From sequence record NC_052661.1: a stretch of DNA of 64,000 nucleotides. One strand, given 5' to 3'. Below the pieces are notes generated by a model. That model made no database searches, had not been told where the DNA came from, and saw only the letters and a program-made list of their open reading frames with translations. Shown here piece by piece: positions 28,438-56,250 of the stretch. This DNA is from Escherichia phage ukendt. The position numbers and the translations under genes were made by a program. Within the stretch, counting starts at the first letter, position 1; each line of letters begins with the position of its first letter.

Positions 28438-28496
28438 TTGACGTTCGCCAGGTGGCGGCATAATATTTACCACGTAGGGCGGCAATGGTGCCGCTC
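28438..28496 (+). promoter_or_regulatory. cassette promoter + 5' hairpin module
   Basis: TTGACG, 17 nt, TAATAT, then ACGTAGGGCGGCAATGGTGCCGCTCA hairpin. Confidence 0.55.
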
Positions 28497-28515
28497 ATTA
28501 TTTGGAGTTAAAATC

Positions 28516-28713
28516 ATGGCAACATTGCACATTGTGGCGAAAGCTGGACAAATAAACGTGGTAGTAAACGGTTTTACTGAGTTCAGTCATCCCCAGGATG
28601 ATCATGAAACGGTTTTATCTTTCATTGATTCACTGTTAGAAATGGGAGTAATTACAGAAGACCAGCACGCTACAAAATGCAAACGCGTTAATCAGATTGC
28701 AGGAATAGAATAA
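28516..28713 (+). CDS. cassette small protein
   Basis: 65 aa; own promoter-hairpin module; GGAG RBS. Confidence 0.5.
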   Translation: MATLHIVAKAGQINVVVNGFTEFSHPQDDHETVLSFIDSLLEMGVITEDQHATKCKRVNQIAGIE

Positions 28714-33757: not shown

Positions 33758-33810
33758 TCCTGTTTTATATTGTGTTATAGTTATCGTGTAGGGCGGCAAT
33801 GGTGCCGCGC
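33754..33810 (+). promoter_or_regulatory. cassette promoter + 5' hairpin module
   Basis: TTGATC, 16 nt, TATAGT, then GCGGCAATGGTGCCGC hairpin. Confidence 0.5.
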
Positions 33811-33829
33811 CCCCTTTGAGGATGAAATC

Positions 33830-34114
33830 ATGAGTAAAGCTAACACCGTGCTAATGTTTTCCCTGATTAATGATCCCGCTTACTTGTCCAACATGACGCA
33901 GGAGGGTAACACATTAACGGCAACATTCACCAATAAGCTTGACCGAGTGATCATCATCTCACTGAAAACAGTTAGTAAAGGCTTTTACTCGTTAGCTTAT
34001 CATTGGATCACCGATACCGATGAGACAAGCCAGGACTATAGCGCCCCTTTCCCTGAATCAATGGCACGGGAGATCATCGCCGCCGTTGTAAATGATGGTT
34101 TGTTTACTGCATAA
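33830..34114 (+). CDS. cassette small protein
   Basis: 94 aa; shares 25-nt initiation region with gene at 24955. Confidence 0.5.
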   Translation: MSKANTVLMFSLINDPAYLSNMTQEGNTLTATFTNKLDRVIIISLKTVSKGFYSLAYHWITDTDETSQDYSAPFPESMAREIIAAVVNDGLFTA

Positions 34115-34624: not shown

Positions 34625-34682
34625 TTGACAAGTCCGCTTAATCTGATAATATGTATCTTGTAGGGCGGCAATGGTGCCGCTC
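34625..34682 (+). promoter_or_regulatory. cassette promoter + 5' hairpin module
   Basis: TTGACA, 16 nt, TAATAT, then GCGGCAATGGTGCCGC hairpin. Confidence 0.55.
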
Positions 34683-34701
34683 ACAAGAAGAGAGAAAAAT
34701 C

Positions 34702-34986
34702 ATGAAAATCACAAAAAGCCTAACTAATTATGCAGCACGTCGCGGATTATGTTTAACCGTTGAAAACTTAGGGAAAGAAGACTTTTTGTGTTTTTGGGAG
34801 CTTGAAAACGATTGCGAGTGGATGTTTTCCTATTCTATCTGCGAAGATCAAAACGGTTGTTTGTTAACCTGGCGCGGTAATATTTATTTACCGGAAGAAA
34901 TTAAAGAGGAATTACCAGGTACGATCATGACAGAGAGACAGCTTAAGGAAATGATTAATTTTGTAGGGCAAAACATTAAAAAATAA
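34702..34986 (+). CDS. cassette small protein
   Basis: 94 aa; promoter-hairpin module. Confidence 0.5.
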   Translation: MKITKSLTNYAARRGLCLTVENLGKEDFLCFWELENDCEWMFSYSICEDQNGCLLTWRGNIYLPEEIKEELPGTIMTERQLKEMINFVGQNIKK

Positions 34987-37456: not shown

Positions 37457-37840
37457 ATGAGCAATATCATCAACCTGGCAGCGACTGTAAACGGTAAAGA
37501 CTTTAACGGCGCTGTAGACCGTGATCCTATGTGGTGCTTGTCAGTGTTTAAAGGTGACTTGGTTGAAGTTAGAACAACCGAAGGGTATAGCGATGATTAT
37601 AAATGCGAGATCCATTTACATAACTGGTACACGGGTAAAACTTATGCGCTGAATCATGCGTTTATCGGCAAGGTTGAATATAGAGAAATGATCGACGATG
37701 AAACGGGGCAGGATTTTAGCGAAAACGTTTATATTCGTTCCGAGACATTAGCCGAACGTTTGATCGAGAAAATGAAAGCAAAAAATAAAATTAATTTATC
37801 TCATTGGATTGATATAACAAACGATCCAGCTTATCAGTAA
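37457..37840 (+). CDS. cassette protein
   Basis: 127 aa; promoter without hairpin; followed by terminator. Confidence 0.5.
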   Translation: MSNIINLAATVNGKDFNGAVDRDPMWCLSVFKGDLVEVRTTEGYSDDYKCEIHLHNWYTGKTYALNHAFIGKVEYREMIDDETGQDFSENVYIRSETLAERLIEKMKAKNKINLSHWIDITNDPAYQ

Positions 37841-37855
37841 ATAACATTTCATACC

Positions 37856-37882
37856 AGGGCGCACAAAGCGCCCTTTCTTTTT
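37856..37882 (+). terminator. rho-independent terminator at the right end of the cassette array
   Basis: AGGGCGC-ACAAA-GCGCCCT followed by TTCTTTTT; near-identical to the terminator at 33231. Confidence 0.6.
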
Positions 37883-38019
37883 GCCCGAACAATGTTGATA
37901 GCTTTCGCCTATGAAAAACCGACACAGAACAAAACTGAATAAATCACGGTATCAAGCTAATCGACCATTAAACGAATAACCATACATCCCAGGGCAACAG
38001 GCTGTTAGAGAGCTATTTA

Positions 38020-38360
38020 GAGCGGTTAAAATCGATCAACAACCAACAACAAACCATCAAAAACACCCTTTTACCTCCTTTCTAGTGCAATGATAACCAT
38101 TATCATCTACCCATGATTATCTATGCAATATAAGCGCATAATTATAATGTTGATAATAGTTCGCAACAACTAACCAACAAACAACATAAAACAATAAGCA
38201 AACTAATCATAATCAAAGGAATAATAGCAAGATGATTGATAACGACAAACAATCAAACCATGATGAATACTAAGCAAAACAACGATAACACGACAAAACA
38301 ACCAACTAACGAACAATAACAAACGAAACCATTAAAATAACAACTATTAGCAAAATAGTG
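38020..38360. repeat. A+C-rich low-complexity tract with AAC/CAA repeats
   Basis: Long runs such as CAACAACCAACAACAAACCATCAAAAACACCC with almost no G on the plus strand and no ORF. Confidence 0.55.
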
Positions 38361-38489
38361 CCTAAATGAAATCATTACAAAACGAATCATTCACAGGATC
38401 ATCATTAGCACGCTATGCCGGACACATAGCGAGCTAATAATAAGCCAACTACACCCCAACAATCATAACCATCGGTGACGGTTATTTCT

Positions 38490-38520
38490 TGTTACTGCGT
38501 AGCTTGCAATAATTGCAAGC
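38490..38520. repeat. perfect palindrome CTTGCAATAATTGCAAG
   Basis: 17-bp inverted repeat within the non-coding region. Confidence 0.45.
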
Positions 38521-38843
38521 GTAATGACGCTTACACTTATTGCGCTGGCTTATTATTAGCATTATATGTAATTACCAAGATCATAACATTAGCGCAATAA
38601 CAATAATCATTGTGGTAATTACAAGATGAAATCATTAGCAAGATGAATAATTGCACGTAGCAACATGAGCGAATAGCGACAGGTTGCATAGTGTGCACAT
38701 AGTGTATAAACATACAAGAAAATAAAGGCTAATCTTTTGGGGGCGAATACTATCGCGTAGCGATATGTTGAGCACCTTCTCTTAAACGTAAATAAAATCA
38801 GAAAATTCTTGATTTATTTTAGTTTTTATGTTAATAAACGTTT

Positions 38844-38864
38844 AAATAATAATCATTCTCATAT
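38844..38864. promoter_or_regulatory. Fur-box-like operator (site C)
   Basis: AAATAATAATCATTCTCATAT shares the core AATCATTCTCAT with sites B and D. Confidence 0.4.
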
Positions 38865-39002
38865 AAATAATAGTCTGCTTGTCATGAGCGGGATTAGTTG
38901 ACAATGTTCCGTCATATGATGAAGTTGCCAAACCATTGATAAATAAGTGTTTGTGTGATTTATAATCAAGTGGCCCACCTTGTCGCTATGTTGGCATGAG
39001 CC

Positions 39003-39044
39003 TTGCATAAGTCATTGAATACGAATGATAATTATTCTCATTCG
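39003..39044 (+). promoter_or_regulatory. promoter with Fur-box-like operator across the -10 (site D)
   Basis: TTGCAT, 17 nt, TGATAAT; palindrome CGAATGATAATTATTCTCATTCG. Confidence 0.5.
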
Positions 39045-39374
39045 CATGATATTTGGGAATTGTCGCTGCGTGGACCTGACGGCCCGAAAATTCGCGTTAA
39101 GCACTTCTTACGTATGCGCCATGATTTTTGCCATATGATATTGATTCTATTAGATATTCTTGCCATGAAACAAGGTGTGTCGAAATAATCTCTCCCCGTA
39201 GATATTTTGGGTTACTTTTTATACAAGAGTGGGGTGTCAAAAATAATCGGTATATATGGGATAATTGATAGGAATCCCCTATGGTAATTCGATTGTAATT
39301 CCTTAAGATTGATCGTATGATGTTGGTGATTGATGATTGCCATGAAAGATGGCTAACGATGAGAGGAGATTGTC

Positions 39375-39749
39375 ATGCAAGAGAGTAAAAATATTCCGTT
39401 GAGTAGTGCAACATTGCTTCGCTTCTATAAAGCATGGATTGCCAACTATCCTGCAATGAATCGCACAACGAGTGGCTTATGTGGTTGTCTGGTAGATTAT
39501 GTAGATGATTTTGTTGGTGAGACAACTAGAGAAGAAGATAGAAGATGGCGTGATCATTTGTTGGACCGTTTGAAATATGAAATGAGGAAACAATTTACAT
39601 GTGCAGGGCTGGACTACAATCTTCCGTTCAATGCAGATTGCATGGATTACCTTTCAGAGTGTATAAACTTGGCGTGTCATACCAACACGTTACGTCTTCA
39701 ATGGGTGAAAGATCGGATTGAAGATGCAAATAATGCTTGCATTGAATAA
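39375..39749 (+). CDS. family A paralog (WVKDR motif)
   Basis: 124 aa; GLCxxL...LPF...RLQWVKDRI shared with four other ORFs. Confidence 0.55.
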   Translation: MQESKNIPLSSATLLRFYKAWIANYPAMNRTTSGLCGCLVDYVDDFVGETTREEDRRWRDHLLDRLKYEMRKQFTCAGLDYNLPFNADCMDYLSECINLACHTNTLRLQWVKDRIEDANNACIE

Positions 39750-39798: not shown

Positions 39799-40008
39799 AT
39801 GAAGAATTTGAAAACTGTCACAATGTTCTTGACTGATCCTACACGTGTGCAAGCACTGGCTAAAGCCAGCCGTGTAGCTGTAGAATTCCAAAACTTTAAG
39901 CCGTCCGTTGTGACAGGCAGTGAAACGTGTGTTATCGATTTCATTAACGAATACTTCCGAGGGAATCCGGTTGGTCGTTACTTTATTAAGGGTCTGAAGG
40001 ATGCATAA
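39799..40008 (+). CDS. hypothetical protein
   Basis: 69 aa; RBS GAGGAG. Confidence 0.5.
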   Translation: MKNLKTVTMFLTDPTRVQALAKASRVAVEFQNFKPSVVTGSETCVIDFINEYFRGNPVGRYFIKGLKDA

Positions 40009-40231
40009 CATGAAACGCATGAAAATTCGTATTGAGAATGGTGGTGGTTATAAAGGATTGGCACATGCAAAATTTCCACTTGTGTTGGAAGCTACAGTGG
40101 AATACAGTGGGCTTGCTCATGTGCGATTCTCGAAGATGATGGAAGTGCAGGAATGGTTTTGGGACGAGATAGATGCACGAGAAGGAGAAGATTATGTTTT
40201 CTTTCCTCACGAATATAACATTGTCTATTAA
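40001..40231 (+). CDS. family B paralog (EGxDYVFF motif)
   Basis: 76 aa; WFWDE...EGEDYVFF shared with 44336..44557. Confidence 0.5.
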   Translation: MHNMKRMKIRIENGGGYKGLAHAKFPLVLEATVEYSGLAHVRFSKMMEVQEWFWDEIDAREGEDYVFFPHEYNIVY

Positions 40232-40243
40232 AGGTTGTGTGCA

Positions 40244-40483
40244 ATGATCACACCACAACAGAATGAAGCAGCAATGGATCTTCTTGATAGTTTGTATTTC
40301 GATAATTGGTACTCTGAATGTGAATGGATGAATGTGCAAACTCTGAAAGAGAAGACAGAAGCGTTGATTACCGTAGATCAATTTCTTGCAGAGACGGAAA
40401 GAATGAATTATGATATGGCATCTCGCGCACGACGCGTTTCCATTTTCAATAAAATGTTAGCATTATGGGGAGGTAGAAAATGA
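40244..40483 (+). CDS. hypothetical protein
   Basis: Start refined to ATG 40244. Confidence 0.45.
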   Translation: MITPQQNEAAMDLLDSLYFDNWYSECEWMNVQTLKEKTEALITVDQFLAETERMNYDMASRARRVSIFNKMLALWGGRK

Positions 40484-40941
40484 GACAATTCACTATACTG
40501 GCAGCTTATGTGCAATGTGTTCACGACTATGTTAGTGCTCATACAGGTGTGCTGGAAGTTACCAGTAAAATTGAAGGTAATATGGGTACTGTCTGTGTGC
40601 AACATACTTTATCCAATGTGCCGTTTAAAGTGTTCACTGTTGTAGCTGCCGATTACAATCGTGTAGATGTGCGTTTCTTGGATCATAATTTTCGTAACGC
40701 ACTAGATAATATCGAAGATTATCTTCCCGTGAAACCTTTGTCATTTCCACCGAGTCGTGCAAATAATGTAGTGACAAACCTTAATGAAAGGAATGTGGCT
40801 ATGCACAAAAAAGTTCGTCAATTGAAAATGCTGATGGAAATGCAAGAAGAGATTGAAAAAGAACTGAAAGAAGATTTCGGTATGCTTCCAAAAGACGCTT
40901 TGAAATGGTATGATGAACTAGGAGGAGAAAGTTATGAATAA
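40480..40941 (+). CDS. hypothetical protein
   Basis: 153 aa ORF. Confidence 0.5.
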   Translation: MRQFTILAAYVQCVHDYVSAHTGVLEVTSKIEGNMGTVCVQHTLSNVPFKVFTVVAADYNRVDVRFLDHNFRNALDNIEDYLPVKPLSFPPSRANNVVTNLNERNVAMHKKVRQLKMLMEMQEEIEKELKEDFGMLPKDALKWYDELGGESYE

Positions 40942-41128
40942 AGGAACTACTGTATATTTAGTGACTAAGAACACCCCAGGTTGGAATCAGTGCACAACAA
41001 CTCCATATAAAGTCTGTGCAACACTGGAATTAGCACAACGTGCAGAAGCAGAAGTTGATGCTATGCAATACAGCTACGGTGAAATCATTCCTTTTACTCT
41101 TGAACAAGAAGGAGCACATCATGTTTAA
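40934..41128 (+). CDS. hypothetical protein
   Basis: 64 aa ORF. Confidence 0.45.
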   Translation: MNKGTTVYLVTKNTPGWNQCTTTPYKVCATLELAQRAEAEVDAMQYSYGEIIPFTLEQEGAHHV

Positions 41129-41906
41129 AGTAGGTTTTGTTTATAATTTCAAATCGGAAGATACCAAAAAGAATTTTGGTAAAGCCAGTATTCGTAACGC
41201 TTTCTTTGTAGGTTGCATTCAAGATAGTAAGTTTAAAGTTTTAGATGTTGATTTTCTAGGTTCTGTGTCAAAGGTGAAGGTATTAGACACAAATAAGATC
41301 ATCGAAGGTAGTTCTGGGCTTTTTCCTGAAGGCTATAAGCTTGTAAGTTGTATAGATTATAGTCGTTTTGAAGAACATCCTCCTGAAGATTATGAGGATT
41401 CTCCTACAGGAGGTTGTGTCTTTGTAGAAGGTGGTGTCTATAAGTTTGCAAGTGAACAAGATCGTAAGCTTTTCGCCAATTATATTGACGGCGGACAAAC
41501 GACAAACAATGTAAACCGAAAAATTTCCGATCTTATTGGCGATGATCCTTTCGTGATCACAAAGATGGTTGGACAAGATGTAACAGCAATCCGTAGGCTT
41601 GTATGTAATACAAATCATGTAGCAGGTGAAGGTTGGTTCAAGGAAGCTTGTGCGCTGCTAATCAAAAGTGATAACCCTTATTTTAAAAATATTAAAGATG
41701 TTGTTGAGCCTAAACAAGAGGAACCCGCAGCGAATTTTAAACACTATGCTATTGTTAAAGGTATGAATGTCCAACTGGTGTCACATTCTTACGAAGAGAT
41801 CGCCACAGAAGCAAAAAAGATGAAGGAAGAATACCCAATTTCTACTGTTGAGATCTATGAGCGTATTGGTGTTGTTAGTATTGAGCCTACTGCGGTAATA
41901 AAATAA
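41121..41906 (+). CDS. hypothetical protein (MFKV family)
   Basis: Start refined to ATG 41121; N-terminus MFKVGFVYNFKS paralogous to 41916..42353. Confidence 0.5.
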   Translation: MFKVGFVYNFKSEDTKKNFGKASIRNAFFVGCIQDSKFKVLDVDFLGSVSKVKVLDTNKIIEGSSGLFPEGYKLVSCIDYSRFEEHPPEDYEDSPTGGCVFVEGGVYKFASEQDRKLFANYIDGGQTTNNVNRKISDLIGDDPFVITKMVGQDVTAIRRLVCNTNHVAGEGWFKEACALLIKSDNPYFKNIKDVVEPKQEEPAANFKHYAIVKGMNVQLVSHSYEEIATEAKKMKEEYPISTVEIYERIGVVSIEPTAVIK

Positions 41907-41915
41907 GGAGCTATT

Positions 41916-42353
41916 ATGTTCAAAGTTAATGCTGTTTACTGTTTCAAAAGCAAAGCTGCATGTGAAGCTTTCTCTATGATCTCTGATGAAAATTTCAAAA
42001 TGGCAGCTTTGATTGAAGGGTCTTGTTTCCGCGTCGAAGATGTTAGTGAATCAGGGTCTGTTTGCTCATTGACTTTATTGGACAGCGGAGATATTATTGA
42101 AGCTGGACAGTATCCGTTCAGAAGTTGGGAGATATTGTTAGCTCGCGGAGAGCGTAACTTTTTTATGTGCGTGTCTGCGGGGGAAGTTGTGAAAGAAACT
42201 AAGGATGTTTCTGTTTACAATTCTGAATTTATAAGTTATAGTGAGTATCAACATCTGGAAGGCATTGTTGGTCACTTGTTATCTCTGATTGACATTGAAT
42301 GTGACTTGCCTGAATCATTGAAAGAAGAGTTGAAAGCATTAGATCTGCTGTAA
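41916..42353 (+). CDS. hypothetical protein (MFKV family)
   Basis: 145 aa; N-terminus MFKVNAVYCFKS. Confidence 0.5.
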   Translation: MFKVNAVYCFKSKAACEAFSMISDENFKMAALIEGSCFRVEDVSESGSVCSLTLLDSGDIIEAGQYPFRSWEILLARGERNFFMCVSAGEVVKETKDVSVYNSEFISYSEYQHLEGIVGHLLSLIDIECDLPESLKEELKALDLL

Positions 42354-42380
42354 TGTTCCGCACAACGAAAGGAGAATAAA

Positions 42381-42680
42381 ATGAATCTGACCGAACAGTT
42401 ACGCCGTATTGCAAAAGAAGCTTCCTTCAACTTCCCTGTTGAAGAAGTGATCGAGACATGTTTTGCTGAAGCACGAGCGGGAAACTCTTCAAGAAATTTC
42501 ACGCCATCTGATTTTGGTCTGGATAATTCCCCTACCCACCCAGGGGAGATCTACAATCAGGTGAAGTGGATGGATGAAGCAGTAGCAATTCTTCGTGAGC
42601 GTGGGCTTATTGTTTATAAAGAAATGGATCTGAACGGGGCATACGAGTGGATCACTATTGATTGGTCGGAGGTGAAATAA
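42381..42680 (+). CDS. hypothetical protein
   Basis: 99 aa; RBS AAAGGAG. Confidence 0.5.
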   Translation: MNLTEQLRRIAKEASFNFPVEEVIETCFAEARAGNSSRNFTPSDFGLDNSPTHPGEIYNQVKWMDEAVAILRERGLIVYKEMDLNGAYEWITIDWSEVK

Positions 42681-42889
42681 TGGTTACTATCACATTGACA
42701 GTTACACAAGAGCAAGCAGAAGAATTACGTGATGCAGTGGCATACATGGGACGCTCTTATTATATGCCTTATAAATCACAAGATGTTTTTGCTACAGCCA
42801 TTGAGAAAGCTTTAAACAAATATCGAGAAACTCATGCCGTTCCTAAAGTATCAGCAGAAGAGTTTGGCACTTGGCACGAAGTTAACTAA
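42680..42889 (+). CDS. hypothetical protein
   Basis: Start refined to ATG 42680. Confidence 0.45.
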   Translation: MVTITLTVTQEQAEELRDAVAYMGRSYYMPYKSQDVFATAIEKALNKYRETHAVPKVSAEEFGTWHEVN

Positions 42890-42899
42890 GGAGGTATCG

Positions 42900-43133
42900 A
42901 TGAAAGGTAACAAGATGAAAGTTAATCAGGTACCGAGTGCATACACTTTGTGGCTTGCGCGAGCGTTACACCAGACGATCAAAAATCCTAAGAAGCCAAT
43001 GAAGAGTGGGAAGAAGTTTATGTCTAAGGGCAAAACAACCTTTGGCTTCACTCGTATGTCTGTTAAGATGGAAAGGCTGGGGTACAAGCCAAACTACGCT
43101 CGTTACCCTTCCGAATACAACTGGTTTGACTAA
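42900..43133 (+). CDS. hypothetical basic protein
   Basis: Start refined to ATG 42900 after AAGGAGG. Confidence 0.45.
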   Translation: MKGNKMKVNQVPSAYTLWLARALHQTIKNPKKPMKSGKKFMSKGKTTFGFTRMSVKMERLGYKPNYARYPSEYNWFD

Positions 43134-43148
43134 AGAGGAGAACAAAAC

Positions 43149-43433
43149 ATGAAAACATCTATTCGCGTGAAACATGATCCGAACAGCAGTTACCCATACG
43201 TGTATGTTGAACGTCATGAAGGGGACTATTACACCATAAAACGTAAAGTCCCAACTGACACAGGGTTTAACTTCGATGTTATCGCACTGGATGATCAAGG
43301 TGTTGATAATCTGGTGAATGCATTACTCGCATTGAAGGAAGTACGACATGAAAATCAGACTAAAGGTAAAGTGGCTTTCGATTCTTGTGATCGTTTAGCC
43401 GAAGAGATTGCCGAATGGCGTGATACTCACTAA
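43149..43433 (+). CDS. hypothetical protein
   Basis: 94 aa; RBS AGAGGAG. Confidence 0.5.
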   Translation: MKTSIRVKHDPNSSYPYVYVERHEGDYYTIKRKVPTDTGFNFDVIALDDQGVDNLVNALLALKEVRHENQTKGKVAFDSCDRLAEEIAEWRDTH

Positions 43434-43448
43434 AACAGGAGAAAGATT

Positions 43449-43625
43449 ATGGCTACTTTTCAACAACTCAAAGATGTTTCACGTTTAGTAAGAAAAATCC
43501 GAGAAGCAGACGCTGCTGTGCGGAATGCATTAACGCCAGCAGAGCGTGAAGATCTTGAAGAGGAGGTGAAAACAGCCGAGAATGCTTTTGCTGCGTATCT
43601 TTCAACACTGTACACAGGAGGTTAA
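43449..43625 (+). CDS. hypothetical small protein
   Basis: 58 aa ORF not in track; RBS CAGGAGA. Confidence 0.35.
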   Translation: MATFQQLKDVSRLVRKIREADAAVRNALTPAEREDLEEEVKTAENAFAAYLSTLYTGG

Positions 43626-43940
43626 ATGTCAGAAGAACTTAAAGAATTTTATCAGGCATATCATAACTGGCTGTTAGCTGGTGCTCCAGATAATAATCCT
43701 TTCTGGCACGATAAAGGGTTATGTAGTTGCCTCTACCTTTGGACTGGTGGTTACGATGATCTAAATTATGAAATGCAAATGCAATTTCGAGAAGCAGGGT
43801 TGTCTGAAGAATACCCGTTTGATGACGGGGACAGGTTTAAATATGATTTTGCACAAAGAAACGGGCTGCTACATTTGAATGCTGCCCGTATAAAATGGGT
43901 AAAAGATCATGCTACACAGGAGGATGTGCAATGCCTATAG
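43626..43940 (+). CDS. family A paralog (WVKDR motif)
   Basis: 104 aa; WLLAGAPDNNPF...GLCSCL...RIKWVKDH. Confidence 0.55.
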   Translation: MSEELKEFYQAYHNWLLAGAPDNNPFWHDKGLCSCLYLWTGGYDDLNYEMQMQFREAGLSEEYPFDDGDRFKYDFAQRNGLLHLNAARIKWVKDHATQEDVQCL

Positions 43941-44131
43941 TGTTTGTTTTCTTGGCGATTGTTATTGTAGTTCTTTTCGCTGCATGGCTTTGGGATTTTG
44001 ACCCAGGAGCCGCGCAGCAAAGAGCTACAGACTTGAAAGAACAATGTATTGTGCTCAAACATGAACGAAATGCGGAGAAATTTCTTGACCTGGAGTGTGA
44101 TCGCCTTGTAAGATACAAGCAAGATAAATAA
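43931..44131 (+). CDS. small membrane protein
   Basis: Start refined to ATG 43931 (MPIVFVFLAIVIVVLF). Confidence 0.45.
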   Translation: MPIVFVFLAIVIVVLFAAWLWDFDPGAAQQRATDLKEQCIVLKHERNAEKFLDLECDRLVRYKQDK

Positions 44132-44145
44132 CCTTGAGGTGCAAA

Positions 44146-44334
44146 ATGGTAATTGAGATTAAACTTGAATATGCTGGGGCTGTTGCCTTGATCGCACAAA
44201 TGCTTGGAGCAAAGATTGAAGAAGTGTATATCAATGCCTGGAGCGTAGAGATTGATGTTCCTATGGATAACATTGCTAATCGCTTGCTGGTAGCAGAGTG
44301 TGAACGCACCAACATAATCTACAAAGGAGCATAA
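44146..44334 (+). CDS. hypothetical protein
   Basis: Start refined to ATG 44146. Confidence 0.45.
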   Translation: MVIEIKLEYAGAVALIAQMLGAKIEEVYINAWSVEIDVPMDNIANRLLVAECERTNIIYKGA

Positions 44335-44335
44335 T

Positions 44336-44557
44336 ATGAAAATTAGAGTTTGTGATGTATTGGGTTATGTTGGTTTTGAGAATGTTCAGATTCCTTTTGT
44401 TGTTGAAGCACATCTTGTTAGCGATGATATGACAACATTCTTTGTTACGATAGAAGAAATGTCTAAAGTTGAGGGATGGGAGTGGTTTGAAGAAGATGTT
44501 TGGGAAGGTTGTGATTACGTATTTTTCTCTGACGAAGTGAATGTTCTTTCGGAGTAG
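44336..44557 (+). CDS. family B paralog (EGxDYVFF motif)
   Basis: 73 aa; WEWFEEDVWEGCDYVFF. Confidence 0.5.
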   Translation: MKIRVCDVLGYVGFENVQIPFVVEAHLVSDDMTTFFVTIEEMSKVEGWEWFEEDVWEGCDYVFFSDEVNVLSE

Positions 44558-46607: not shown

Positions 46608-46880
46608 ATGAATAAAGATCGGTTTCTTTCTTTAGTCGCGGAAGCGCCTTTTGATGTTCTTGGGGTGAGATTATGGAAAGACAGAAACTATGGGTTAGAT
46701 GTTCAAACATATTCTCTTTGGTTGGTTGGGGAGCACAGCTTAGATGAAAGCTTGTGCATGGGTAGGGATTCTCGTTCCCTTTGTTTAAAGTTCAGAAGCT
46801 TAGAACGCGCAAACAAAGAGCAAGAAAAACTAACGAGGTGGCTAAATGAAAACAAGCACAGGGTTGATGGAGTTTTATAA
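46608..46880 (+). CDS. hypothetical protein
   Basis: 90 aa ORF. Confidence 0.5.
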   Translation: MNKDRFLSLVAEAPFDVLGVRLWKDRNYGLDVQTYSLWLVGEHSLDESLCMGRDSRSLCLKFRSLERANKEQEKLTRWLNENKHRVDGVL

Positions 46881-47172
46881 AATTTATCTAGCATGGATTG
46901 ATGTTGGTGCTCCTGATGGTAAACCTTTTCGGCGGGATTGTGGTTTGTGTGCCAACTTGTTCGATTATGTGCACAGAGGTAATTACAACCCCATTATAAC
47001 AACCTTGTCAGATGAAATGCACGCACAGTTTTACCATAAAGGGTTGAATCAAGGACTCCCTTTCAATGAGAACTACGATGCATATGTCTTAGAGTCAGAT
47101 GCAGATGCCTGTCACCTGAACGTGGACAGAATTAATTGGGTAAGAGATCGTATTGCAGAGGAGGATGAATAA
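46846..47172 (+). CDS. family A paralog (WVKDR motif)
   Basis: 108 aa; WIDVGAPDGKPF...GLCANL...RINWVRDRI. Confidence 0.55.
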   Translation: MKTSTGLMEFYKIYLAWIDVGAPDGKPFRRDCGLCANLFDYVHRGNYNPIITTLSDEMHAQFYHKGLNQGLPFNENYDAYVLESDADACHLNVDRINWVRDRIAEEDE

Positions 47173-49064: not shown

Positions 49065-49736
49065 ATGAAAAAGTTTGTTGTTTACAGTCGTCTTTCTAAA
49101 CAGAAAAAAGGTGAGGCACAATATGGTATGGAGAGCCAAGAGAACGATATCCGTTACTTCTTAGACTCTGTGCCTGACGCTGAAGTTATTGGTCAATTTT
49201 CTGAATACTATTCGGGTAAGGGCGATTGGAAGCAACGTAAGGAACTGGTTAAAGCGGTTGAAATGTGTAAAGCTACCGGAGCAACTTTATTGGTAGCTAA
49301 AGTTGACCGCTTGGGTCGTAACAACGCCTCCGTAGCAACTCTCCTAGAAATGATCGATGTTAAGATAGCCATCATGCCAGACGCAGATAAAATGGTTATA
49401 CAGCTTCTGTCTGTTTTGGCTGAACAAGAAGTTAGAGGTATTGCTGATCGTATTAAAAAGGGTCTTGCTGTAGCAAAAAGCAAAGGTGTTTTATTAGGCA
49501 GTGCTAATCCTAAAACTGCCGCTGCACGTAGAAAAGGAAAAATGGAATACAACTCTGTTAAAGCAGACGCTTTTGCAGAGACATTCCGTGAACGCTTGGA
49601 GATCCTTAGAGATTTAAATACACCTTACAAAACTATTGCTGAAAAATTTAATAGTAAGAAAATAGCAACAGCACGTGGTGGTAAATGGGATGCTAAGACT
49701 GTTTCTCGTTTGTGTGCCAGACTGAACATTAAATAG
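49065..49736 (+). CDS. serine recombinase (resolvase/invertase family)
   Basis: Catalytic-region motifs VVYSRLS and VAKVDRLGRN; C-terminal HTH-like segment; start refined to ATG 49065. Confidence 0.6.
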   Translation: MKKFVVYSRLSKQKKGEAQYGMESQENDIRYFLDSVPDAEVIGQFSEYYSGKGDWKQRKELVKAVEMCKATGATLLVAKVDRLGRNNASVATLLEMIDVKIAIMPDADKMVIQLLSVLAEQEVRGIADRIKKGLAVAKSKGVLLGSANPKTAAARRKGKMEYNSVKADAFAETFRERLEILRDLNTPYKTIAEKFNSKKIATARGGKWDAKTVSRLCARLNIK

Positions 49737-49744
49737 GAGAGGAT

Positions 49745-50167
49745 ATGAAACAAGAAAATGAATCTGTAGATCACTTAATCATGCTGTCAGCCCTTTTTGC
49801 AGGATGGGACGTATTTTTTGAAAATTTGTTCAATTCTGCTACAGATGGTTCCGATTTTATGCGCCAGTTTAAACGACGAACTGTTGAGGACTATGCTTTC
49901 TATTCAGGTCGGATTGAAAAAGGTTACGAAGATACAAATACAACACTCACCATTAAAGTTTTAGATGTGATGTTTAGTGTTATAGATGCTATCGACGAAA
50001 GTCTTCCGATCCTAGACAATTGTAATACGAAAGCCTATGTTTACAAAATAGCTCGTGCTTATGTGTCTGCAAACAGTTGCCTTCTTTCCACCCAGATTGC
50101 CGTGAACAATCTTGCCAACTTGTTCGATGAAGGAGAAACTTTTTATGACAATCGATTTGAAGTGTAA
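49745..50167 (+). CDS. hypothetical protein
   Basis: 140 aa ORF. Confidence 0.5.
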   Translation: MKQENESVDHLIMLSALFAGWDVFFENLFNSATDGSDFMRQFKRRTVEDYAFYSGRIEKGYEDTNTTLTIKVLDVMFSVIDAIDESLPILDNCNTKAYVYKIARAYVSANSCLLSTQIAVNNLANLFDEGETFYDNRFEV

Positions 50168-50510
50168 GAGGATTCTTTTAGATTTCTATAATAATTGGTT
50201 AGAACACCTCCGTCTCTTTCCAAGAGAAAGTGGTTACGCTGATGTTGGCTTATGCCGAGGTCTACGTATGTATATAAGTGATGAATTTCGGGCCGAGCAT
50301 TCTTTAGCATATTCTGTTTATGGTATGCAATTAGCCAGTTTTGAAAACGCTGGCTTAGATACAACTTTCCCATTTAACACAGCAAAATCTTTTGAGCAAG
50401 AGTGTAAGGAAAAACGTTGCATGTTTAATGAAAAACGTGTACAGTGGGTTAAGGATCGAGTTAAACAACTGGAACAAGAGTTGGATTTCTTCTATGATGA
50501 GGCAGAATAA
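50145..50510 (+). CDS. family A paralog (WVKDR motif)
   Basis: Start refined to ATG 50145; GLCRGL...FPF...RVQWVKDRV. Confidence 0.5.
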   Translation: MTIDLKCKRILLDFYNNWLEHLRLFPRESGYADVGLCRGLRMYISDEFRAEHSLAYSVYGMQLASFENAGLDTTFPFNTAKSFEQECKEKRCMFNEKRVQWVKDRVKQLEQELDFFYDEAE

Positions 50511-50786: not shown

Positions 50787-51398
50787 ATGATTCAATGCAC
50801 TCATATCCAAATTACTTGGAGAGATGAACTTTACCATTTGGGACAATTTACTGTAGGGGAAACATACCCTATCATTAAACATAATCCTAACATCGCAAAC
50901 TTTGACAGGATGGTTCTTGTTGAGGACGATCTAGGTCAAACTTATTCTTTAGATCTAAAATATCCGTTTTCTTACGGCTACGATTGGATCGTTACTTTTG
51001 AAGACGTGGAGGAAAATAAAACAATGAACGAAAAAAATTCTTGGTATTATCGTTGTGAACTGCCACCAGTAGGTGAAAAGGTTATCTTTGTCCCTGATTT
51101 GGAAAGATATTCTTGGGACAGTTCTTATTCTGTTCCTAAAGAAGGCACCGAAGTTGAAGTTATTGCACATCGCACAACTTCGCATGGTAACGATGTAGCA
51201 GTTGTTTTCTGGGATGATGAAGGCGCTGCTTGTGCAGGTGGCTTTGTTGCAGGTAATTTTGAACCCCTGCCAGATCCTTTGAAGGAGGCAATTTTAGGCG
51301 TAGCTTCTTTTGGACTCTCTTACACATCTGCACAAGAGATCGTAGAAGGTATTTTAAACGGTACCGTTCCAAACGAAATTTTTAAACAGATTAAATAA
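50787..51398 (+). CDS. hypothetical protein
   Basis: 203 aa; followed by terminator. Confidence 0.5.
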   Translation: MIQCTHIQITWRDELYHLGQFTVGETYPIIKHNPNIANFDRMVLVEDDLGQTYSLDLKYPFSYGYDWIVTFEDVEENKTMNEKNSWYYRCELPPVGEKVIFVPDLERYSWDSSYSVPKEGTEVEVIAHRTTSHGNDVAVVFWDDEGAACAGGFVAGNFEPLPDPLKEAILGVASFGLSYTSAQEIVEGILNGTVPNEIFKQIK

Positions 51399-51449: not shown

Positions 51450-51788
51450 ATGTATTACACTGAAGACTACATATTGTATAACTTTTTTAAAGGTTGGTTG
51501 AAATGGGCGGAACAAGCTCCTGTCGGAGATTGTGTTTTTCCTTGGGATTCTCGTCAAGGCTTGTGTCGTTGTTTGGAAGATTGGCTTATAACCACAAACT
51601 ACAATTCAGAAACTAAGAAATCTACATCAAACAGATTAAAAATGTTATTTGAAGAAGATGGTTTAGATCCAATTTATCCTTTCGGTGCTGAAAGCTTCCA
51701 CAATAGTCTTTTTCTTGGCACTCAACATTATGACAAAGATCGCGTAGATTGGGTAAAAGAAAAGGTAGCACAGTATGAATGGGGCTAA
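51450..51788 (+). CDS. family A paralog (WVKDR-like motif)
   Basis: Start refined to ATG 51450 after AAAGGAGG; GLCRCL...YPF...RVDWVKEKV. Confidence 0.5.
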   Translation: MYYTEDYILYNFFKGWLKWAEQAPVGDCVFPWDSRQGLCRCLEDWLITTNYNSETKKSTSNRLKMLFEEDGLDPIYPFGAESFHNSLFLGTQHYDKDRVDWVKEKVAQYEWG

Positions 51789-53105: not shown

Positions 53106-53321
53106 ATGAGTTCCAATTTTCTATACAAAGCAAAAGATTCACGAGATGGAGAGAACCATTGGTGGTTGATCACAGAAGATGGTGTTATCATCCTACCGTG
53201 GGACGGAGAGACGAAAGTTCAAATACTAGAGAAAGTAAAAGGCGTTAGTTTTAATGTTAGTCATGACATAACAACTTTCAAAGCTTTTGCTATGAATCCT
53301 AGTCTTATTGCTGAATGGTAA
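53106..53321 (+). CDS. hypothetical protein (C-terminal LIAEW)
   Basis: 71 aa; RBS CAGGAGG. Confidence 0.5.
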   Translation: MSSNFLYKAKDSRDGENHWWLITEDGVIILPWDGETKVQILEKVKGVSFNVSHDITTFKAFAMNPSLIAEW

Positions 53322-53334
53322 TCCAGGAGAAAAT

Positions 53335-53553
53335 ATGACTAAAATGTATGCAGCCGTTGATAAGCTGGATGGGTCTGATTCTGTTTTTATTTTGAATAAA
53401 ATGGGTGTCTTAGTTTATGCCCGAACTTCTCAAAACATAGAGCACCAAGTGGAAGCAGCACAAATTTTAGAGCAAATAACCCCTCCATACCTATACTCAA
53501 ATGTTGAGCGTTTTAACGATGCACTTGGTTTGACGTTAATAGCGGAATGGTAA
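53335..53553 (+). CDS. hypothetical protein (C-terminal LIAEW)
   Basis: Start refined to ATG 53335. Confidence 0.5.
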   Translation: MTKMYAAVDKLDGSDSVFILNKMGVLVYARTSQNIEHQVEAAQILEQITPPYLYSNVERFNDALGLTLIAEW

Positions 53554-53555
53554 TA

Positions 53556-53753
53556 ATGGCGAAAATGTTGGAAATTGATAATGTCGTAACAATCACTACG
53601 TCCATACCTTGTCCTCCTATACCTTGCCCCTATTGTGGTGGTGCAGGATATGTTATGGCAGATGTAGGTCAAATTTACGAGTGTAACCCGTGCAAAACCA
53701 CAGGCTATATCGAAATAGAATCAGAGGAGAAACACTATGAGCCAAAACGCTAA
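53556..53753 (+). CDS. DnaJ-type CxxCxGxG zinc-finger small protein
   Basis: CPYCGGAGY and CNPCKTTGY repeats. Confidence 0.45.
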   Translation: MAKMLEIDNVVTITTSIPCPPIPCPYCGGAGYVMADVGQIYECNPCKTTGYIEIESEEKHYEPKR

Positions 53754-54618: not shown

Positions 54619-55227
54619 ATGGAAGAGAAGATTTGGGATGGTAAAGATCCTTTAGAAGTGGGACATGTAGCACGTGTCAAAAAATCTACTACAGGCCCTG
54701 GTTTTTCTGGTTTGTATCATATACCAGAAGAGGGTCAGCACGTTACAATTTTGGCTCGTGACAAACAAAACGGATCAACACCTGTGTGGATTGTTCGTTG
54801 GTATGACAAAGATCTTAACATTTGCTTGTCACCTATTATGGCTCATTTGCTGGAAGCCCCTTGCTCTGAAGAAGCTCTCATTTTTGTTTCGGCTTTTCAG
54901 AAAGCCACAGGTTTAACATTAGATGCAAAAGATGTGCAAAAAGCATTTGACATTATTCAGGAAGACAACGATACTACATCTAACGACGAACTGGTTGAAG
55001 TTACAATCTTATCTTCAGCAGATATTCGAGAGATTGATAATTGTGATTTTCCAATCACATTTAAAATGTCACAGAAAGACGTGCAGTCATCTGGAAGTTG
55101 TTTTGGTATACCTCGTTGGTTTTTTGATTCTATCAAAAATTCTACTACAGAGGGATCAGATTATGATCAAGATGACATGCTTTGGTTCTTAAAAAACCGA
55201 GAGATTGTTCTCTCACCACTTAAGTAA
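54619..55227 (+). CDS. hypothetical protein
   Basis: 202 aa; RBS AGGAGG. Confidence 0.5.
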   Translation: MEEKIWDGKDPLEVGHVARVKKSTTGPGFSGLYHIPEEGQHVTILARDKQNGSTPVWIVRWYDKDLNICLSPIMAHLLEAPCSEEALIFVSAFQKATGLTLDAKDVQKAFDIIQEDNDTTSNDELVEVTILSSADIREIDNCDFPITFKMSQKDVQSSGSCFGIPRWFFDSIKNSTTEGSDYDQDDMLWFLKNREIVLSPLK

Positions 55228-56221: not shown

Positions 56222-56250
56222 AAAAGGCACCCACTTGGGTGCCTTTGTTT
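56222..56250. terminator. bidirectional rho-independent terminator at the convergent junction
   Basis: AGGCACCCA...TGGGTGCCT hairpin flanked by an A-run upstream and a T-run downstream. Confidence 0.6.

Follow-up and report, generated by a model that had tools for sequence, protein, structure and literature searches.

The closest described relative of two of the genes considered here is GoF (ComC-alpha) of phage T4, whose N-terminal domain is predicted to form a five-stranded LSm/SH3-like barrel, as in T4 MotB.1 and Frd.2 (Kim et al. 2025, PMC12152347). The mutant protein GoF(D25Y) stabilises the gene 41 mRNA, raising RNA half-life, and goF mutations suppress rho-mutant restriction (PMC12152347). 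The family has been described as conserved in Tevenvirinae, with phi92-like and phAPEC8-like phages not mentioned, and even T4 GoF is not predicted to assemble into oligomeric rings (PMC12152347). We have analysed a stretch of 64,000 nucleotides (nt) from Escherichia phage ukendt (sequence record NC_052661.1; this whole stretch is called the window, and positions refer to it), in which three pairs of short plus-strand open reading frames (ORFs) had been put forward as paralogues. The window derives from a Phapecoctavirus (Stephanstirmvirinae), a phAPEC8-like Escherichia coli myophage with 97% identity to phages ESCO13 and phAPEC8_ev052 (ev052 below). Pair 1 comprises copy a (40010-40231) and copy b (44336-44557), pair 2 consists of the adjacent genes B (41121-41906) and C (41916-42353), and pair 3 of copy a (53106-53321) and copy b (53335-53553), all on the plus strand.

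The six ORFs are protein-coding genes and fall into three families of duplicates that are old and diverged. All have AGGAG-type Shine-Dalgarno sequences (ribosome-binding sites) 6-8 nt ahead of the start, and the ratio of nonsynonymous to synonymous substitution rates (dN/dS) between orthologues lies at 0.0-0.3 in comparisons with ev052 and the divergent Phapecoctavirus phages phiWec186 and phiWec190, which together identify them as real genes. They are also carried as coding sequences (CDS) in the related phage records examined. The original prediction had considered the three pairs homologous on the strength of short shared motifs, and scored pairwise alignments bear this out. Single BLASTP comparisons are significant for pair 1 (E = 1e-14, 38% identity over 71 amino acids (aa)) and pair 2 (E = 3e-10, 41% identity over the N-terminal 69 aa); pair 3 has a weaker direct score (E = 6e-5, 25% identity, full length), which is backed by the phi92 protein gp024 and by leave-out hidden Markov models (HMMs). 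In an all-vs-all BLASTP of the 359 window ORFs, pairs 1 and 2 were found at E = 6e-12 and E = 8e-8. Shuffle tests with 5000 shuffles gave p = 7e-9 for pair 2 and p = 1.5e-4 for pair 3, and for pair 1 none of the 5000 reached the score (Gumbel p = 1e-10). No further members were identified among the 359 ORFs with HMMs of these families. No extended DNA similarity is left between copies, a repeat scan returning matches of 19-34 nt only, which indicates that the duplications are old. Homology, duplication and the GoF membership of pair 2, taken together, are very likely correct, and we have good confidence in the wider explanation, in which diverged duplicates, a GoF-type array and the inferred roles are combined.

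As judged by sequence comparison, the proteins of pair 2 are members of the T4 GoF family. Their N-termini, MFKVGFVYNFKS and MFKVNAVYCFKS, are alike as originally quoted, and the likeness is limited to an N-terminal domain of ~85 aa. BLASTP aligns T4 GoF with the N-terminus of the 261-aa product of gene B (E = 2e-8) and with the 145-aa product of gene C (E = 2e-4), and the two proteins match the goF PHROGs 13003, 2980 and 8944. An alignment of 11 N-terminal-domain sequences has the motifs MFxxGxxYxF, FxV, AG and YFxEV in common. When an HMM was built from sequences outside the window, T4 GoF included, exactly three domains were found among the 359 ORFs, two in gene B (1e-15 for domain 1 and 9e-12 for domain 2) and one in gene C (3e-18). 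Several related records carry the label ‘goF mRNA metabolism modulator’, and gene C is named ‘RNA metabolism moderator of RB51’ in ev052.

While the shared N-terminus had been recognised from the start, the family and the third, internal copy of the domain had been missed. Gene B encodes, in this order, a GoF-type N-terminal domain 1 (aa 1-86, 41121-41378), an acidic linker, a second N-terminal domain that is an internal duplicate (domain 2, aa 99-192, 41415-41696), and a C-terminal domain delimited by domain-HMM matches (aa 206-261, 41736-41903). Gene C has a GoF-type domain at aa 1-86 and a different C-terminal tail. Alignments and domain HMMs place a Glu/Pro-rich linker between the N-terminal domain (aa 1-86) and the C-terminal domain, and the C-terminal domain of gene B is common to the single-unit GoF-like proteins of relatives, not to gene C. 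Both halves of the 261-aa protein match goF PHROGs: residues 1-62 match phrog_5347, phrog_5804 and phrog_13003, and residues 101-208 match phrog_622, phrog_3710 and phrog_2980, the last of these (goF) at aa 107-188 with E = 3.6e-6. Furthermore, a 152-aa GoF-like protein of ev052 aligns end to end with aa 100-254 of the gene B product (E = 3e-6), and its N-terminus aligns also with residues 1-55. Direct BLASTP of domain 1 with domain 2 finds nothing (shuffle p = 0.016), and the internal copy is therefore visible through profiles and third sequences only.

The layout of N-terminal domain, acidic linker and C-terminal domain is shared with T4 GoF, residues 1-91 of which are homologous to the N-terminal domain of ~85 aa seen in the window. 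The phages themselves, however, belong to different groups (Stephanstirmvirinae and, for T4, Tevenvirinae), the window-type genes stand in a tandem array of variable size with two N-terminal domains in the single polypeptide of gene B, and an HMM of the C-terminal domain does not match T4 GoF. Several diverged GoF-type copies among the early genes of one phage are also seen with T4 MotB.1 and Frd.2, but the T4 copies are dispersed and beyond the reach of BLAST, whereas those in the window are adjacent, recognisable by BLAST and variable in number between strains. An hhalign comparison of MotB.1 with the N-terminal-domain profile gave E = 8e-4 and a probability of 24%, and gp003 of phi92 has a sub-threshold match to Pfam FRD2 (E = 0.015). 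The likeness to Hfq and the Sm/LSm proteins is confined to the fold that has been reported for the N-terminal domain of GoF (PMC12152347); neither protein of pair 2 matches a Pfam model at E ≤ 1, the Hfq and LSM models included, and neither T4 GoF nor the N-terminal-domain profile has sequence matches in the PDB. Word-indexed homologue searches returned near-identical or within-subfamily proteins only, and an exhaustive search of representatives gave 7 matches, one of which (P0007) is repetitive and unrelated. In the literature we found nothing specific on paralogues or goF in Phapecoctavirus. Phage phi92, a Justusliebigvirus, has single-copy counterparts: its gp003 corresponds to a GoF-like unit, gp024 to pair 3, and gp002 to a 64-aa ORF ahead of the array, the order gp001-gp002-GoF-like being conserved. 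It has, in contrast, one GoF-like copy compared with two genes and three domains in the window, one pair 3 gene compared with two, and no homologue of pair 1, although the related phage alia has one.

Domain-HMM scans of related loci indicate that the array ranges from 1 to 5 domains. The largest one, in ESCO37, has four GoF-like genes with five N-terminal domains (G0 of 151 aa, A of 152 aa, B of 261 aa and C of 145 aa). Three genes with four domains are present in ev052, and two genes with three domains, B and C, in the window. Both phiWec186 and phAPEC8 have two genes and two domains, and the first gene of phAPEC8 (phAPEC8_0024, P0011) is a hybrid that joins the gene A N-terminal domain to the gene B C-terminal domain, while phi92 and alia have one gene with one domain each. 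A divergent metagenomic contig (L014) retains a two-domain gene of 258 aa (27% identity) followed by a gene of 142 aa, so that the B-C arrangement is old. The full 261-aa gene was found in only 15 records at ≥95% identity, and gene A in ~58 records at ≥90%.

The aligned loci indicate that whole genes and whole domains are the units in which the array changes. Homology breakpoints between the window and ev052 lie exactly at gene starts. The window is without the two ESCO37 genes G0 and A, and the context upstream of its gene B is that found upstream of G0 in ESCO37; the first 14 nt of G0 and B are identical (ATGTTTAAAGTAGG), and the junction sits there. The paralogues of the array start with ATGTTTAAAG, and their linkers contain QEEP. 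G0 and A might thus have been lost through recombination between paralogue 5′ ends, and recombination at 5′ ends and linkers, which are similar among the paralogues, may drive the gain and loss of copies in general.

Directly upstream of the array lies the 64-aa ORF (40934-41128, plus strand, phrog_24303), the orthologue of phi92 gp002, whose 3′ end marks the junction of the two genes missing with respect to ESCO37. Its stop codon has been lost in the window, and the ORF is 6 codons longer and overlaps the start of gene B. It has 90% aa identity to phi92 gp002, with ~90% identity of the aligned DNA (phi92 locus 1153-1329), compared with 56% for its upstream neighbour and ~30% for the GoF-like genes. 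This likeness reflects either very strong constraint or a recent exchange between genera.

The two genes of pair 1 encode the motifs EWFWDE..EGEDYVFF (copy a) and GWEWFEE..EGCDYVFF (copy b) at the positions at which they had been reported. The pairing stands, but the start assigned to copy a probably does not: its ORF opens at 40001, and the most likely start is 40010, which has GAAGGA 8 nt upstream, the site lying 1 nt past the stop of the previous gene. Copy a is thus ~73 aa long, and copy b, which has AGGAG 7 nt upstream, 73 aa. Both proteins match phrog_15322 over profile positions 1-73 of 73 (E = 5e-41 and 2.5e-44), and dN/dS is 0.17 for copy a in comparison with phiWec186 and 0.18 for copy b. 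Both copies, which sit 4.3 kb apart, are present in every Phapecoctavirus-type genome tested, and among the loci examined copy b is confined to such genomes. The single pair 1 gene of alia stands at the position of copy a and groups with it. Pair 1 is a dispersed duplicate, and copy a, which is shared with Justusliebigvirus, is the ancestral positional copy. An AlphaFold2 model of the pair 1 protein, from a shallow alignment, is of low confidence, with a predicted local distance difference test score (pLDDT) of 46.9, and is unusable. The possibility of a GoF-type barrel in pair 1 was rejected (hhalign probability 0.04%), as was a resemblance noticed by eye to the C-terminus of a 202-aa protein (54619-55227), which is not significant (phmmer E = 0.17-0.19). 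A separate observation concerns a metagenomic protein of 141 aa (P0004), a chimera in which the N-terminal 50 residues of the pair 1 copy a type are joined, at a common ‘EGWF’, to the last 95 residues of the gene B product. It maps to window ~40001-40160 fused to ~41620-41906, which implies that ~1.4 kb was naturally deleted between unrelated genes at short stretches of similarity.

The genes of pair 3 are tandem duplicates of one that phi92 has in a single copy. Copy a (71 aa, phrog_16110, E = 2e-41) is the first gene past an intergenic gap of 360 base pairs (bp) that contains a sigma-70-like promoter match, and copy b (72 aa, phrog_24460, E = 6e-54) follows it. As originally noted, both end in LIAEW. 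The phi92 protein gp024 is similar to both copies (E = 6e-12 for copy a, 1e-7 for copy b), and an alignment of five sequences has 11 invariant columns, the terminal LI.EW included. HMMs built without the target copy recovered it among the 359 ORFs at E = 8e-6 and 1e-5 and matched nothing else, and the copy b protein also matches phrog_16110, the family of copy a, over its full length (E = 5e-4). The gp024 intermediate, the leave-out HMMs and this cross-match secure the homology of the pair. In addition, phmmer with the 51 genes of the small-gene block gave E = 0.007, and one of the 5000 shuffles reached the score. At their 3′ ends the copies share a 28-nt DNA remnant (repeat D3), 232 bp apart. 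Both copies are found in tandem in every Phapecoctavirus genome whose fetched locus covers the site. Neither pair has a match in Pfam, NCBIfam, PADLOC or PDB sequence and profile searches. The next gene (53556-53753, plus strand) encodes a zinc-finger protein of the CxxC...CxxC type, orthologous to phi92 gp025, which in that phage comes after the single gp024; it has sub-threshold matches to the Lar restriction-alleviation and anti-TRAP families (E ~0.002, well below cut-offs).

Several observations weigh against the explanation given here. The direct similarity within pair 3 is weak and falls short of E < 0.01 in the all-vs-all BLAST; in pairs 1 and 3 the identity between copies a and b (24-39%) is lower than that between copy a and its Justusliebigvirus orthologue (39-51%); the alignment places no Asp of the window domains at the T4 D25 column; the AlphaFold2 model of the 261-aa protein, again from a shallow alignment, has a low mean pLDDT of 48.3, with five consecutive strands in domain 1 at pLDDT <50 and only the C-terminal domain reaching 65-78; wild-type T4 GoF is without demonstrated activity, only the D25Y mutant stabilising RNA (PMC12152347); and a scan for sigma-70 promoters gave 62 matches where shuffles led one to expect 55.5, which is no enrichment. 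The first of these points, together with the shortness of the ORFs (70-76 aa) and of the motifs picked out by eye (5-12 residues only), could be taken to mean that the similarities are chance or compositional matches of short ORFs, some of which would not be genes. The statistics already refute this for pairs 1 and 2; the alignments run collinearly over the whole of proteins that are equal in length, and pair 3 has the backing of an intermediate sequence and leave-out HMMs; since dN/dS values, Shine-Dalgarno sites and annotation in related records likewise speak for genes, we regard chance as extremely improbable. The second point bears on the origin of the copies. Because copy b is the more distant one, duplication in situ needs either loss in Justusliebigvirus or accelerated divergence, and the second copies (pair 1 copy b, pair 3 copy b and some GoF-like members) might instead be xenologues from other, partly unsampled, Stephanstirmvirinae. 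Such an origin would agree with the mosaic early region and its cassette-like indels at gene boundaries, and the gap in phi92 identity between the 64-aa ORF and its neighbour suggests that genera do exchange genes. It agrees poorly with the strictly tandem placement of pairs 2 and 3, with the 28-nt remnant kept at both 3′ ends of pair 3, with the presence of both copies in all Phapecoctavirus-type genomes tested (pair 1) or covered (pair 3), and with searches that found the families of pairs 1 and 3 nowhere outside Stephanstirmvirinae-like genomes, and we consider it unlikely. In pairs 1 and 3, the duplication may predate the split of the genera, with later loss, copy b may have diverged faster, or copy b may have come from a relative.

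With regard to function, the analogy with T4 GoF suggests that the GoF-like proteins might bind RNA, or the RNA-processing or termination machinery, and adjust the stability of phage transcripts, a role that we propose only tentatively. The domains might otherwise be protein-protein modules of the SH3/FeoA type that act on a host protein and have no part in RNA metabolism, the array diversifying against variable host targets or defence systems. Wild-type GoF had only a slight reporter effect and no strong post-transcriptional effect (PMC12152347), and copy number differs between close relatives isolated on different hosts, both of which fit protein-protein modules; the raised RNA half-life with GoF(D25Y) and the suppression of rho-mutant restriction by goF mutations do not, nor does the lack of matches to defence or anti-defence models, and such modules remain a doubtful explanation. 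Returning to an RNA-directed array of diverged GoF-type duplicates, one could imagine fast-evolving barrel modules aimed at RNA or its machinery, whose copy number (1-5 domains) and fusions are reshuffled at paralogue starts and linkers and which tune transcript stability, or interference with Rho or the degradosome, to E. coli hosts; the two-barrel gene B product would then be a covalent LSm-like pseudo-dimer. This elaborated version is speculative and in our view improbable. If it were true, the LSm-like family of T4 would extend to an unrelated myophage subfamily, and natural copy-number variants would be at hand for testing what wild-type GoF does. By analogy only, pairs 1 and 3 may be small early accessory proteins with binding targets in the host or the phage. 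The duplicates may have diverged towards different targets, and the GoF-type genes and pairs 1 and 3 would be expressed early.

Duplication itself is unsurprising here: large lytic phages commonly have paralogues among their small early genes, and the duplication of small genes is ordinary biology for them. What the analysis adds is modest: pair 2 is placed in the GoF family, a hidden third domain is recognised, and there is evidence for a change of copy number by recombination between paralogues. The Stephanstirmvirinae provide naturally occurring variants, with between one and five GoF-type domains and including a conserved two-domain protein, which could be compared experimentally for the role of wild-type GoF, and the junctions illustrate how such an array changes, recombination at near-identical paralogue starts and linkers probably removing or fusing whole units. 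Pairs 1 and 3 represent orphan families that are conserved and under purifying selection, and are candidates for host-takeover or anti-defence screens.

The three pairs belong to a dense series of ~51 small plus-strand ORFs with positive GC skew (~39.4-56.2 kb), which closes at a bidirectional terminator-like hairpin (56223-56246) and whose ORFs are nearly all labelled hypothetical proteins in the annotations of relatives. Its gene content, and the fact that goF is an early gene in T4, lead us to infer that this block is the early region; the block adjoins the presumed genome end, which is only suggestive for early expression. Local duplication, which the original prediction had called pervasive on the basis of these pairs and a further family A, is a fair description: pairs 2 and 3 are tandem neighbours, the copies of pair 1 lie 4.3 kb apart, and family A together with the three pairs places 11 of the ~51 genes in paralogue families. 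Family A has five members (39375-39749, 43626-43940, 46846-47172, 50145-50510 and 51450-51788) with pairwise E values of 1e-7 to 1e-18; its best match is phrog_2510, with no Pfam match, and its C-terminal W(V/I)KDR motif is still visible in the DNA (repeat D1). A segmental duplication of a block consisting of a family A gene, an intervening gene and a pair 1 gene is unsupported, since the intervening genes are without similarity; the gene upstream of the alia pair 1 homologue, moreover, does not belong to family A. The count rises to 13 if a weak pair is taken in, formed by residues 111-175 of a 203-aa protein (50787-51398) and residues 30-93 of the 202-aa protein, which are similar at a borderline level (phmmer E = 0.002, BLASTP E = 0.001). 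Another borderline similarity links the protein of 43149-43433 with the N-terminus of the 203-aa protein (E = 0.01). Upstream of the block, three ORFs (28438-28713, 33770-34114 and 34651-34986) form a weakly similar trio in the all-vs-all BLASTP, over short N-terminal stretches (E = 2e-5 to 1e-3).

Escherichia phages ESCO13, ESCO25 and ev052, and ~100 other Phapecoctavirus records, share 96-98% identity with the region 40001-44557. The early region is mosaic at gene boundaries. Cassette-type indels separate the window from ev052, which has ~460 bp more past the equivalent of window position 43374 (43363-43374) and ~310 bp more near 39400 (39392-39407). Ahead of the block, ~37570-39375 holds no convincing ORFs on either strand and has a lower GC content (0.37). 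Window ~37573 corresponds to position 1 of the ESCO13 record, and the terminal repeats of phi92 stand just ahead of the orthologous genes; the physical genome end probably falls within ~37570-39375. Several records with >95% identity to the window name Campylobacter, Acinetobacter, Klebsiella or Pseudomonas as the host, probably through mislabelling or contamination. Amid the small-gene block of this lytic phage, 49065-49736 encodes a serine recombinase (Pfam Resolvase N-terminal domain, E = 5e-18), which ev052 carries as ‘Methionine ABC transporter ATP-binding protein’, a label that looks like a mis-annotation.

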